DNA of 58,137 nucleotides, filler included, from Basidioascus undulatus (lineage: Eukaryota): NCBI GenBank assembly GCA_000826855.1. It is 6 parts of 6 records of this genome, joined end to end, with 100 filler letters (N's around TTAATTAATTAA, not from the genome) between each part and the next. Parts side by side here need not be neighbours in the genome. Positions count along the whole stretch, not along the records: positions 9,693 to 19,310 come from JTLS01001234.1; 5 more parts are not named here. One strand, 5' to 3'. Below are positions 10,326 through 14,628 of this stretch, in pieces. Below the pieces are notes generated by a model that worked only from the letters and a program-made list of their open reading frames with translations, ran no database searches and had not been told where the DNA came from. Position 1 is the first letter of the stretch, and the number at the start of each line of letters is the position of its first letter. The translations under genes were made by a program, and so were the position numbers.

Positions 10326-12199
10326 ATGGAGAGCTACCTCCCCTCCGTTGGCTCTGGCCTCGCCGCCCAGATCGACCCCGTCCAGTACCGCAAGCGCAAG
10401 GTCGCGCTCATCTCTGGTGCGTCTGCCGTCGAATCTCTGTAGTCTGTCCATTTATCGCGCGCTGATGATCCCCCCGTGCGACGCGTAGGTATTACCGGTC
10501 AGGACGGCTCGTACCTGTGAGTGTTCGCGTCGATCTCTCGTGTGACCGTTGGGGCGGGATCTCATGCTTCGACTGGGACACGTCCAGCGCCGAGCTCCTG
10601 CTCTCCAAGGGCTACGAGGTCCACGGTATCATCCGTCGTTCTTCCTCCTTCAACACTGGTCGTATCGAGCACCTGTACCGCGACCCCCATGAGAGTGCGT
10701 TCCTCTCCCTGTGACGCTCTCATCCCCAACGCACTCACGAGCTCTGCCGGACGCGTTATAGAGCCCAACCTCATCCTGTACGCCGTCTTGAACTGAGCCC
10801 TCCTGATGGTGTACTAATCGCGAAGCCGGACCTGTGGAACAGCCATTACGGTGACCTGACCGACACCACCAACCTCGTCGGCATCGTCTCCCGCGTCCGC
10901 CCGACCGAGATCTACAACCTTGCTGCGCAGTCGCACGTCAAGGTTTCGTTTGATATGGCTGAGTACACTGTACGCGCTCCAATTGCCGATGATACTCTGT
11001 CCGCGTTATGCTCACCGATACGTGAACAGGGCGACGTTGACGGTCTCGGCACCCTCCGCTTCCTCGACGCCATCCGGACTTGCGGCCTCGAGAAGTGCGT
11101 GCGCTTCTACCAGGCTTCTACTTCCGAGCTCTACGGCAAGGTACGTCTCGTCTCCATATGGACTCTCTTCGCCGATCCTCGCTGACATGAGCGTTCGCAC
11201 GTCCTCCAGGTCGTCGAGACTCCTCAGACCGAGAAGACCCCCTTCTACCCCCGCTCTCCTTACGGTGTCGCTAAGCTCTACGCCTTCTGTGCGTCTCGTC
11301 TTGCAACTTTGGCGCACTCCGGCTCCATGTACTAATCAGCTTATCTTGTCGGCGCGAAACAGGGATCGTGAAGAACTACCGTGAGGCGTACGGCATGTAC
11401 GCGACCAATGGTGTCCTCTTCAACCACGAGTCTCCCCGCCGTGGCCGCACGTTCGTCACACGTAAGATCTCGCGCGCCGTCGCGGAAATCAGCCTCGGCA
11501 AGCAGGAGTGCCTCTTCCTTGGTAACATCGACGCCAAGCGTGACTGGGGCCACGGCACGCCATCTTGCCCTTTCTTCAGTCGGCTCAAGCTCACCTTTGA
11601 ATGCGATTGTGTTTATAGCCAAGGACTACGTTGAGGGCATGTGGCGCATTCTCCAGCAGGACGAGCCGGAGGACTTCGTGCTGGCCACGAACGAGAGTAC
11701 GTTTGTTGAACTGACCGCTTTGTGTCATTGCCGAACACCACGAGCTTACGCGCTACTCTCATCTCCTTCAGCCCACACCGTCCGCGAGTTCGTCGAGAAG
11801 TCTTTCAAGGTCGTTGGCATCACCATCCGGTACGCTTCCCTTCGATTCCCTCGGCGTCACGATAGGAATGGGGCTGACAGGTGGCTGGTGACAGGTGGGA
11901 GGGCAAGGACGAGAACGAGGTTGGCATTGACGACAAGACTGGCAAGACCCTTGTTCGGATCGACCCCAAGGTGCGTTCCCGGCCTACTCCTTTGTGCTGT
12001 CTGTTTAACGGCCGATCTGACCATCATGGTCTTTGCACAGTACTACCGCCCGGCCGAGGTTGAGCTTCTCTGGGGCAACCCGGCGAAGGCGGAGCAGAAG
12101 CTCGGCTGGAAGCGCCAGGTCGACTTCGAGTCGCTCGTCCGGGAAATGACCGAGGCGGACGTCAAAGCCGCCCAGTCCCTCGTCGCCGACCAGAACTAG
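10326..12199 (+). CDS. GMD: GDP-mannose 4,6-dehydratase (multi-exon)
   Basis: [153 protein letters not shown]. Confidence 0.97.
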
Positions 12200-12725
12200 A
12201 CACCCCATTCACTTCCCTTTTCATGTCTCTCCCGGACTTTCCTGCCTTATTATAGCCCACACGCTCTTTCAGTGCTTCAGCCATCCTCTTTACTCTATCG
12301 TTCTTTATCTCATGGTTCCGGGCCTTCATGTAACGTCTTCTGTCTCTCTTTTGCTTTCTTTGTATCTCTGTCCCCCTCTAACTTGCATATCTGTGAACGG
12401 GATTTCGGGCATCATATTATAGATTGGCGGGGCACGTTTGTGCGTTCGAAGTACCATCAGCGCGTGCGTGGGGCCCGGGTGTGATGCATGTTTTGTCAGG
12501 AAAAGGGCAAGCTGCCTAAAGAGGCCGCTACATCTGGACGCATTTTTCGCGTGCCAGGGACCGGCGCCACTGCCCAGCCTCGTCCAAAACTCGATCAAAC
12601 TGCGGAGACAAGCGGAAGAGTCTACAACAAGGCGAAGCGTTCCTGGGCTGGACAGGTACGCCGCAATTGGGGAACTTCAAGCGCTTCGTCTGTCTCGTTC
12701 AAAAGGGCATACTGATTCGAGTACC

Positions 12726-14628
12726 ATGAGCACCTTCGTTAAAAGAATGCACTGGCCTGCGCCGTTTGGCAAAACGTTCACCGAGCAGAGCGTTATTTGG
12801 TGCTACCAGCGTGGGCTCGCAGCACGCGCCCGCTCTACTAACGTCGCACACTCTTGGGATTGCGGCTTGACCTTGACTTTAGACCTTCTGCTGTCGCGAC
12901 TTGCCTCGTACATTATCTTCTTTTCTCTAGTTTATTCCTATCTATACCCTCGCGTGGATGTACAAGCCATGATCTCGGCGGTCTCCCCACTTGTAAGTTC
13001 TCTTGAGCTTTCACAGCGCGACCTGGGCCTCGCTGACGCGAAGACGCTCGACGCGACAACTTTGGCGCCTCCAGAATCGGCGGTTGCTCTCCACCGCTGG
13101 CCTGGCTGTTCTGGTGCTCTGGACGCTCTTTCATGCGGGTTTGTGATCGTTCCTGTTATATGGCTCTGTTGGGGCAGGGCTGATGTAGGACAGCGTCTGG
13201 TCGCGTCGACAGCCGACTTCAACTTTGAGCCGTCGCGACCGCGAAGCCGGACAGCAGTCGGGGACTCCGACGCGCTTTGGGAGGTGGTCGAGATCCGGCC
13301 AACACCGCTGCGACCATGCGAGCGTACGCTGCTCTTTAGCTTTGCGGGTGTGTATGGGTTCGGGAGCGAAATCGGCATGCTCGTGCGTTCCTCTCCTTTG
13401 GCTGGTGTAGCTCTAGGTCGGGTCAGCAAATGGGGCAGCCGGGCTCACGAGAGCGACGCGTGGTTACGACGGAGGTGGTAGACTCGCGCAGCTGTGCTAG
13501 CCGAGATGTATAGCTACGAGCTTGTCATCGACACGAGTGCGTGGCAGTACGGCTCGTTCTACGACTACTTCCTTCCGCCTCAGCTCCAGTGCTCGCCGCC
13601 GGACGACTGGGCAACCCGCCTGCGGGTCTGTGTCGGCGATAGCGGTTGGTCCGATGCACCGCACGTCTACGCGGCCCGACCAATGTGCGTCTTCTCACAT
13701 CTGCTCTGACACGTCGCTCAGCACTGATGCATGTCTGACATTACGATGCTGTTCTCCTCTCGGCAGCCATGAGACGATGGACAAGCTCCTCCTCGCGTAC
13801 TACACTCCGCTTGAGGCCCGGCGCGCTCTTCGCGACCTCGACCGCGCCAATATCGCGGACCACCTCACCCTCCTACCCGCTGAGCAGACCCTCCTACCGA
13901 CCCTGCGCGAGGTCTTCCGCGCCCAGTCTGCGGCGCTCCGCCGCCTGTGGCGCCCCTCACCAGCCGTGCAAGGCATGATCTCAAATCTTGCGCGGGATCT
14001 GGCTCGTCAGCGCCTGGCCGCCGCGGCCGATGGTGCTGACGAAGCCGAGGGCGACGCCCTCGCTGACGTCGGTGCTCAGATCGGCGTGCACTTCCGACTG
14101 GGAGACAAGGCGCGCGAATCGATGAAGTTCGGGGACTCGGGCGTGTCGCACCGGTTTGGCGACCCGTCCGGCTACCTCGCCGCCGCACGCGAGGTCCTAC
14201 CCGCCGTCTCCTCGACGTCGAACACGCCCGCGAGCCTGGTGGTCATGTCGGACGACTCTGCGAAGGCGCAGAGCATTTTCGAGGAGTCGTCCGAGCTCGC
14301 GCCTTTCACCGTGCTGTCCACCTCGCCGGTGTCGGCGCTCGTCAAGGCGCCCGAGGGGCACAACCAGTGGACCTTCAACACGCTCGACCTCCGACTGCGC
14401 ATCCAGTACACGCAGCTGTTCGTCCGCGACGTGACGTACCTCGCGCAGCACACGCAGGGCGTTCTGTGCTCGTCGAGCAGCAACGTCGGCGTGCTCCTCC
14501 TTCTGCTAGCAGGCGAGGAGAAGGTGGAGAACGGCTTGGCGAGGAGCGTCGATGCCAGATGGGTGCCGACCACTATTTATCAGATGATGTACGATGGATT
14601 AGATGAGGACGAGGGGAGCCAGGCATAG
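12726..14628 (+). CDS. Putative GT-B fucosyltransferase, FUT8/NodZ (GT23)-like, type II membrane protein (start uncertain)
   Basis: N-terminal hydrophobic segment LLLSRLASYIIFFSLVYSYLY and a Gly loop GVYGFGSEIGML. The three alpha-2/alpha-6 fucosyltransferase motifs occur in order: IGVHFRLGDK (~14080-14109), LVVMSDD (~14235-14256) and DVTYLAQHTQGVLCSSSSNV (~14428-14487). Confidence 0.72.

Follow-up and report, generated by a model that had tools for sequence, protein, structure and literature searches.

Enzymes that use GDP-fucose as donor include the animal alpha-1,6-fucosyltransferase FUT8 (glycosyltransferase family GT23, Pfam PF19745), the rhizobial alpha-1,6-fucosyltransferase NodZ (GT23), POFUT1 and POFUT2 (GT65 and GT68) and plant FUT1 (GT37), all members of one fold class. 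In bacterial O-antigen and capsule loci a donor-synthesis gene lies beside a gene of the fucosyltransferase class. A comparable pair is found on the plus strand of a stretch of DNA from the fungus Basidioascus undulatus (assembly GCA_000826855.1; 58,137 nucleotides with filler, hereafter the window), in which a gene for GDP-mannose 4,6-dehydratase (GMD), intact as judged from its sequence, is followed in tandem by a gene for a putative fucosyltransferase (Table 1). The pair differs from the bacterial loci in comprising two genes only, in that neither a GDP-fucose synthase (GMER) nor a sugar-nucleotide transporter was found in the 58-kb window, and in that the adjacency was not found in sampled relatives. 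The reading that we favour, with moderate confidence, is that the second protein is a fucosyltransferase nearest FUT8, which would transfer fucose from GDP-fucose onto a glycan, and that its position beside GMD is local and lineage-specific. The gene is a useful candidate from a branch of a known enzyme class that has no characterised members and escapes Pfam, and not a new kind of system.

A putative FUT8-like transferase gene and its sequence family

We read the product of the second gene as a distant relative of FUT8 within the fucosyltransferase fold class, on the strength of a family profile, the fold of a homologue, the position of the last exon in a protein atlas and the residues that the protein retains. 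The profile comprises 69 sequences, the three catalytic exons of the window gene included. When it was searched against the Protein Data Bank (PDB), eight of nine rows were FUT8 (E 1.5e-8 to 2.3e-8), the ninth having an E of 0.78; FUT8 is the only sequence relative of the family in that database, and NodZ, the POFUT enzymes and plant FUT1 are not found by the profile at E<=10. The alignment of profile and FUT8 passes through a G-aromatic-G motif, W-x-Y...F-x-P, H-V-R-x-x-D-K and an S-S-x-V block. For P0001, the closest homologue, AlphaFold (given an alignment that includes the window exons) produced a confident model, with a predicted local distance difference test score (pLDDT) of 79.7 and a predicted template modelling score (pTM) of 0.77. 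Foldseek searches with this model rank FUT8 chains at the top (E 2e-10); plant FUT1, NodZ, POFUT2 and POFUT1 come next. In VIA-align comparisons of the same model, 14 FUT8 entries reach Z 19.5-22.2 over ~270-300 residues with a root-mean-square deviation (rmsd) of 3.5-4.3, the best fit being Z 22.2 with an rmsd of 3.8 over 296 residues. The other fucosyltransferases are clearly weaker matches (Z 13.6-15.3), with values of 15.3 for POFUT1, 14.9 for NodZ, 14.7 for POFUT2 and 14.4 for Arabidopsis FUT1 (AtFUT1). Below them the scores drop to the next fold, a GT9 heptosyltransferase (Z 8.6); the 43 entries that score higher are without exception GDP-fucose enzymes. In the protein atlas the last exon of the window gene itself lies nearest the FUT8_N_cat, NodZ, O-FucT and XG_FTase clusters (scores 0.93-0.95). 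The catalytic domain, of ~375 residues, would accordingly be expected to adopt a GT-B-type fucosyltransferase fold nearest FUT8 (GT23). The original prediction of a FUT8/NodZ-like protein agrees with these results, the Z of up to 22.2 against FUT8 being that of the P0001 model.

The motif regions of the transferase (Table 1) are the best-conserved columns of the family, and all three fucosyltransferase motif regions named in the original prediction are present. Conservation was scored in 36 family sequences, with residues numbered along the last exon. It reaches 90% or more at R110, L111, G112, D113, K114 and E117, and likewise at D262 and P267; S238, N239 and S260 are invariant. The window transferase retains every invariant or near-invariant residue of the family (W61, R110-K114, E117, S238, N239, S260, D262 and P267). 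Motif regions in common with FUT8 are G-aromatic-G, early in the catalytic domain, H-x-R-x-x-D-K and S-S-x-V. The Arg, Asp, Lys and Glu of the HVRRTDK...E region of FUT8 are essential residues; in HFRLGDKARE the Arg, Asp and Lys align with those of HVRRTDK, and a Leu takes the place of the second Arg. By analogy with FUT8, the Arg/Asp/Lys/Glu motif would hold the diphosphate of the donor and activate the acceptor.

Five exons are required to assemble the transferase, and the reading frames dictate four GT-AG introns. Beginning with a conserved Cys, residue 73, the spliced protein is collinear with its homologues up to its C-terminal end (best three E 5e-53 to 9e-52), and both joints within the catalytic domain are free of gaps. 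The stop codon at 14626-14628, on the same strand as GMD, matches the original prediction. The start codon probably does not: translation had been taken to begin at 12726, which would yield a protein of 529 amino acids. The GC content at third codon positions (GC3) of 12726-12968 is 0.59 compared with 0.79 for the remaining coding sequence, GC being 0.52 in intergenic DNA and 0.58 in the transferase introns. The value for 12726-12968 resembles that of non-coding DNA. If coding, this segment would also contribute another hydrophobic stretch, and with two such stretches the catalytic domain would end up on the wrong face of the membrane. Because of both the GC3 and the added hydrophobic segment, ATG 12969 is favoured over ATG 12726, and 12726-12968 is probably 5' untranslated region (5'UTR), possibly one that bears an in-frame upstream ATG. 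The start at 12726, and a possible extra in-frame intron at 12811-12882, were set aside on the same grounds of GC3 and topology, without being disproved.

From ATG 12969 the protein is predicted to begin with an 11-residue N-terminal tail that leads into a single signal-anchor helix; a stem of ~50 residues then links the helix to the catalytic domain. Its homologues are laid out alike, with one N-terminal hydrophobic segment at the equivalent relative position; in the P0001 model this segment is a helix. The type II membrane protein foreseen by the original prediction thus fits the single N-terminal hydrophobic segment obtained with this start. FUT8 has the same type II layout. The window transferase would most likely reside in the Golgi and transfer L-fucose from GDP-fucose onto a wall, capsule-like or glycoprotein glycan.

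Relatives of the transferase are divergent and become visible only in sensitive searches. Word-indexed homologue searches with the last exon gave no match. In a phmmer search of the last exon against the PDB the sole match, a phage/outer-membrane Lom protein (E 0.019), was rejected as chance. By exhaustive search 88 homologues came up at E<=1e-3, of which 34 also reach E<=1e-10, and the best match is 34% identical; over the homologues identity to the window protein ranges from 25 to 37%. Names were obtained for 25 of 30 homologues looked up, and all are "hypothetical" or "uncharacterized". All but one of the 25 belong to Pucciniomycotina, among them rusts, Microbotryum, Rhodotorula, Sporobolomyces, Mixia, Atractiella and a metagenome-assembled genome of Cyphobasidiales; this placement was looked up for four genera or orders. 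Rhodotorula toruloides has the member Rt10032_c05g2240. The only named member outside the subphylum, P0036 of Auricularia subglabra, sits on a long branch with a red-yeast clade. In a quick maximum-likelihood tree the window transferase groups with two rust proteins and one other sequence (SH-aLRT 94), its rust orthologues being locus O181_024262 of Austropuccinia and protein KAI8461569.1 of Phakopsora, and at least four further clades bring the family to at least five. Two members each occur in Sporobolomyces johnsonii, Rhodotorula diobovata and Meredithblackwellia. The member from Microbotryum saponariae (P0210) is annotated inside an 1809-residue "ATP-dependent DNA helicase" model, probably a merged gene model. 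Scans of metagenomes for related loci, seeded either with the clade of the window transferase or with that of the red yeasts, gave pattern matches and no confirmed relative.

The nearness to FUT8 raises the question of whether the transferase is its true functional counterpart, or that of NodZ, and so would attach alpha-1,6-linked fucose to GlcNAc at the reducing end of N-glycans or chitin oligomers. Animal FUT8 carries a C-terminal SH3 domain and a long coiled-coil stem. The window transferase has a short stem, no SH3 or other Pfam domain on its last exon, and ends 22 residues after its last conserved motif; in structural alignments identity to FUT8 is ~13-16%. It falls outside the Pfam FUT8 family as that family is defined, and is not a FUT8 orthologue. 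With the FUT8 accessory domains and FUT8 orthology both lacking, the acceptor is probably not the core GlcNAc of N-glycans; for the acceptors of NodZ, the POFUT enzymes and plant FUT1 (chitin oligomers, EGF/TSR protein repeats and xyloglucan) there is no evident counterpart here. Linkage and acceptor are in any case not readable from a fold, and the radiation of the family into at least five clades suggests several acceptors. In favour of a true counterpart are the standing of FUT8 as the only sequence-level relative and best structural match, and the report, in the part of a fungal fucose survey available to us, of alpha-1,6-linked fucose on fungal glycans whose enzyme is not known, for which the survey cites Grass 2011 and Martinez-Duncker 2014 (PMC10481521). 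Taken together, we give this identification only a slim chance and keep to a FUT8-like enzyme of the wider fold class.

The GMD gene and the tandem arrangement

The first gene of the pair is an ordinary, intact GDP-mannose 4,6-dehydratase (EC 4.2.1.47) by every sequence feature inspected. The model, from ATG 10326 to a stop at 12197-12199, has 12 exons that total 1122 nt and encode 373 amino acids; its 11 introns are 60-75 nt each, ten of them GT-AG and one GC-AG. All six exons long enough to be tested against Pfam match GDP_Man_Dehyd (PF16363) above its 27-bit cut-off (29.7-94.4 bits), and the matches follow one another along the profile from position 14 to position 332. Over its full length the spliced protein can be aligned with fungal homologues of GMD, at 73-81% identity over ~355-395 alignment columns in the best 45 rows, many of which bear GMD names, and the exon joints are gap-free, including those of the micro-exon and of the GC-AG intron. 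It is about equally similar to GMDs of Microbotryomycetes and of Agaricomycetes, and so does not resolve where the organism belongs. The two genes were read as those of a basidiomycete, probably one of Pucciniomycotina. Short-chain dehydrogenases are recognised by a Gly-rich loop that binds the cofactor and by catalytic Ser/Thr-x-Glu and Tyr-x3-Lys motifs. The translation carries the cofactor and catalytic motifs, YGVAKLY among them, identical in the aligned homologues, and its GC3 is 0.84. The original prediction had called this GMD unambiguous, and nothing in these results speaks otherwise. The enzyme would produce GDP-4-keto-6-deoxymannose, the committed intermediate of GDP-L-fucose.

The adjacency of GMD and transferase is real. 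The two genes lie in tandem on the same strand between genes of opposite orientation, with a block of minus-strand open reading frames (ORFs) on the upstream side and, on the downstream side, a multicopper oxidase. From the GMD stop to ATG 12726 there are 526 nt, in agreement with the ~0.5 kb given by the original prediction, and to the favoured ATG 12969 there are 769 nt. On rough, assumed figures (~10 fucosyltransferase-like genes among ~7,500 genes) the chance of such a gene flanking GMD is ~0.3% per genome; an adjacency of this kind is therefore unlikely in one genome and to be expected now and then over many scanned windows.

The original prediction went further and proposed a co-inherited mini-cluster. 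On this reading GMD and transferase would form a co-regulated two-gene fucosylation module kept together by selection. Donor synthesis beside a donor-using enzyme is a common logic, and the short spacing, shared strand and opposite-strand flanks speak for such a module. Evidence from relatives is less favourable. Six family members were located in five Microbotryomycetes genomes, with contigs told apart by size, locus names and the gene table of one genome paper, and none is on the contig or chromosome that carries GMD. Microbotryum lychnidis-dioicae has MVLG_06564 as its family member and two copies of GMD. Of these, MVLG_02521 lies on scaffold 20 and is flanked by a pair of hypothetical genes that carry no annotation, and MVLG_06341, on scaffold 113, has Urm1 and WD40 genes as its neighbours. 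In M. saponariae the family member is on Chr7 and GMD on Chr3; Meredithblackwellia has members on 0.83- and 2.40-Mb contigs and GMD on a 2.59-Mb contig; the contigs measure 75.6 kb (member) and 78.8 kb (GMD) in Pseudohyphozyma, and 45 kb (member) and 2.7 kb (GMD) in a Phenoliferia sp. The sample represents clades other than that of the window transferase, which holds rust proteins and one other sequence, and part of the paralogues only, a circumstance that leaves the module some room. In addition, the family splits into at least five clades and several species carry two of its members, the upstream regions of the two genes share no k-mers or motif above shuffles, and ORF scans of the window (described below) found neither GMER nor a transporter. 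Paralogues scattered away from GMD, with adjacency in no relative, were the outcome that the original prediction itself had named as speaking against a cluster, and in the sampled relatives this is largely what was found. A selected, co-regulated module is thus judged unlikely. The linkage is probably local and lineage-specific rather than a conserved cluster, and selection for it is unproven.

Two further observations concern the Microbotryum genes of this pathway. In supplement file 2 of PMC4469406, an unannotated 1.8-kb hypothetical gene, MVLG_03144, starts 42 nt after the GDP-fucose synthase gene MVLG_03143 (scaffold 28), and the GMD copy MVLG_02521 precedes a 3.2-kb hypothetical gene, MVLG_02522.

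Donor of the putative transferase and fungal fucose

A number of results weigh against the reading of the second gene as a GDP-fucose-dependent transferase paired with GMD. Pfam is silent: none of four transferase exons, tested singly, matches any family at E<=1, so that the match to a fucosyltransferase hidden Markov model envisaged in the original prediction did not materialise. Among 40 homologues one passes FUT8_N_cat (PF19745; 41.7 bits, cut-off 27.6), two score below the cut-off (20.0 and 16.9), 36 have no Pfam match, and one has a spurious sub-threshold match to a phage portal model. The fold evidence comes from P0001, which is 31-34% identical to the window protein, and not from that protein, whose last exon folded alone by single-sequence AlphaFold gives a useless model (pLDDT 35). 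The conserved Glu of the family lies one column away from that of FUT8 in the profile alignment, and membership of a fold class is no proof of which sugar is transferred. With no GDP-fucose synthase or transporter in the window, GDP-L-fucose synthesis by the organism is assumed. To these are added the separation of the sampled relatives from GMD and the absence of a shared upstream motif, given above.

Poor Pfam recognition and identities of 25-37% to homologues might also be read as signs of decay, the transferase gene being a non-catalytic relic whose pairing with GMD is meaningless. We consider this very improbable, since the frames are open over five exons with canonical GT-AG introns, GC3 (0.79) stands well apart from the GC of the introns, and all invariant or near-invariant residues of the family are kept.

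A further reading concerns the donor. The transferase may use another sugar, whether a GDP-6-deoxyhexose formed from what GMD produces (GDP-D-rhamnose or another) or some unrelated nucleotide sugar, in which case the fold would mislead. Some plant proteins of O-FucT-like fold do use other sugars. Pfam was run on 189 ORFs of at least 110 amino acids and 398 ORFs of 56-109 amino acids from the whole window; no Epimerase-family match other than GMD appeared, although exons within shorter ORFs could escape, and no sugar-nucleotide transporter was matched in the same sets. The absence of GMER noted in the original prediction is therefore repeated here, and it is compatible with a donor other than GDP-fucose, as is the occurrence of GMD alone in some fungal lineages, according to the available portion of the survey (PMC10481521). 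Set against this, every one of the 43 top structural entries uses GDP-fucose, the Arg/Asp/Lys motif that would bind the diphosphate is retained, and Microbotryum, a relative that has the family, has an annotated GDP-L-fucose synthase (MVLG_03143). In addition, the wall sugar recorded for the subphylum, in the parts of two reports available to us, is fucose and not D-rhamnose (PMC11458906; PMC4469406). A different donor has, on this evidence, a low probability, and GDP-fucose is retained as the likely donor, with the GMD neighbourhood as a modest extra hint.

Fucose in these fungi has a literature of its own. A paper of 2000 by Takashima, listed among the references of PMC8092308, deals by its title with urediniomycetous yeasts and the use of fucose as their taxonomic marker. 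GDP-fucose synthesis is predicted across Basidiomycota except Ustilaginomycotina, and the walls of R. toruloides contain 4-9 mol% fucose, in each case according to the part of the source available (PMC8092308; PMC11458906). For the enzymes that carry out fucosylation in fungi, the fungal fucose survey uses the words "remain elusive". Pucciniomycotina are one of the groups for which it lists FUT8_N_cat proteins, and in its available text it gives gene neighbourhoods for O-FucT subfamilies only (PMC10481521). These Pucciniomycotina proteins are plausibly the edge of the family described here; the survey used the Pfam model, and that model misses 39 of 40 tested family members at its cut-off. No characterised fungal enzyme of the FUT8-like kind, in Pucciniomycotina and Rhodotorula or elsewhere, was found in open-access text, and the statement of the original prediction that none is known stands within that literature. 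The Microbotryum genome paper, in the part available, ties a single candidate fucosyltransferase to wall fucose (PMC4469406). It was considered as a possible family member and rejected, being a GT10 protein (MVLG_05795) in that paper's own table. The CAZy table of the same paper (supplement file 12) has no column for GT23, GT11, GT37, GT65 or GT68, and a search of 12 of its 24 supplementary files did not find MVLG_06564.

Pucciniomycotina comprise rust pathogens and industrial red yeasts, and fucose is a recorded sugar of their walls. The window transferase and its 88 relatives, annotated as "hypothetical", are concrete candidates for the enzymes that add it. A broader proposal, which we offer tentatively and with more doubt than conviction, is that this divergent family (at least five clades, nearly confined to Pucciniomycotina and invisible to Pfam) represents the missing enzymes behind the wall fucose of rusts, smut-like fungi and red yeasts, a sugar of long standing as a chemotaxonomic marker, one clade having become physically coupled to GMD in the lineage of the window. 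If the function were confirmed, a wall-building enzyme family specific to Pucciniomycotina would be named.

Neighbouring genes and composition of the window

Table 1. Positions of features in the Basidioascus undulatus window
Feature	Position	Strand	Basis or remark
GDP-mannose 4,6-dehydratase (GMD) gene	10326..12199	+	splice model, Pfam, homologue alignment
GMD exons 1-6	10326-10416, 10489-10516, 10588-10694, 10762-10777, 10843-10969, 11030-11140	+	
GMD exons 7-12	11210-11288, 11363-11554, 11619-11696, 11772-11829, 11895-11970, 12041-12199	+	
16-nt micro-exon of GMD	10762-10777	+	gap-free against homologues
GC-AG intron of GMD	11555..11618	+	joint RDWGH-AKDYVEG gap-free against homologues
Spacer, GMD stop to favoured transferase start	12200..12968	+	includes 12726-12968, probable 5'UTR
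FUT8-like (GT23-related) putative fucosyltransferase gene	12969..14628	+	splice model, collinear family alignment, remote homology
Transferase exons	12969-12992, 13075-13138, 13189-13382, 13482-13684, 13767-14628	+	448 amino acids
Transferase introns	12993-13074, 13139-13188, 13383-13481, 13685-13766	+	all GT-AG
Exon with single hydrophobic signal-anchor, RRLLSTAGLAVLVLWTLFHAG	13075..13138	+	Kyte-Doolittle 19-residue window 1.70
GFGSE, N-terminal half	13356..13370	+	family consensus; aligned to GYGCQ of FUT8
HFRLGDKARE, putative donor-binding and catalytic Arg/Asp/Lys/Glu motif	14089..14118	+	aligned to HVRRTDK of FUT8
MSDD	14245..14256	+	family consensus
CSSSSNVG ... RSVDARW C-terminal block	14467..14562	+	first part aligned to CTFSSQVCR of FUT8
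Sub-parts of C-terminal block	CSSSSNVG 14467-14490; RSVDARW 14542-14562	+	
Mlh1-type mismatch-repair gene	2-2569	-	HATPase_c_3, DNA_mis_repair, Mlh1_C; runs past window start
Multicopper oxidase exons	15290-17899	-	Cu-oxidase_2 and _3; convergent with transferase gene
Chitin synthase gene	50365-53338	+	CHS4-like domain and Chitin_synth_2 pieces across several exons
Paired N tracts	9593-9636 and 9649-9692; four further pairs near 19.3, 29.0, 38.7 and 48.4 kb		

The window is eukaryotic DNA, rich in introns and in GC (51-69% GC per 2-kb window). It contains ten tracts of 44 N, paired at ~9.7-kb spacing, which look more like masking than assembly gaps; one pair lies ~630 nt 5' of the GMD start, so that part of the GMD promoter region is unreadable. 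Besides GMD and the transferase, the Pfam and ORF scans recovered Mlh1, a TPR protein, a multicopper oxidase, a formamidase, permeases, a kinase, a Mex67-like protein and a chitin synthase. The last of these is a further wall-synthesis gene, ~36 kb from the GMD/transferase pair in window coordinates.

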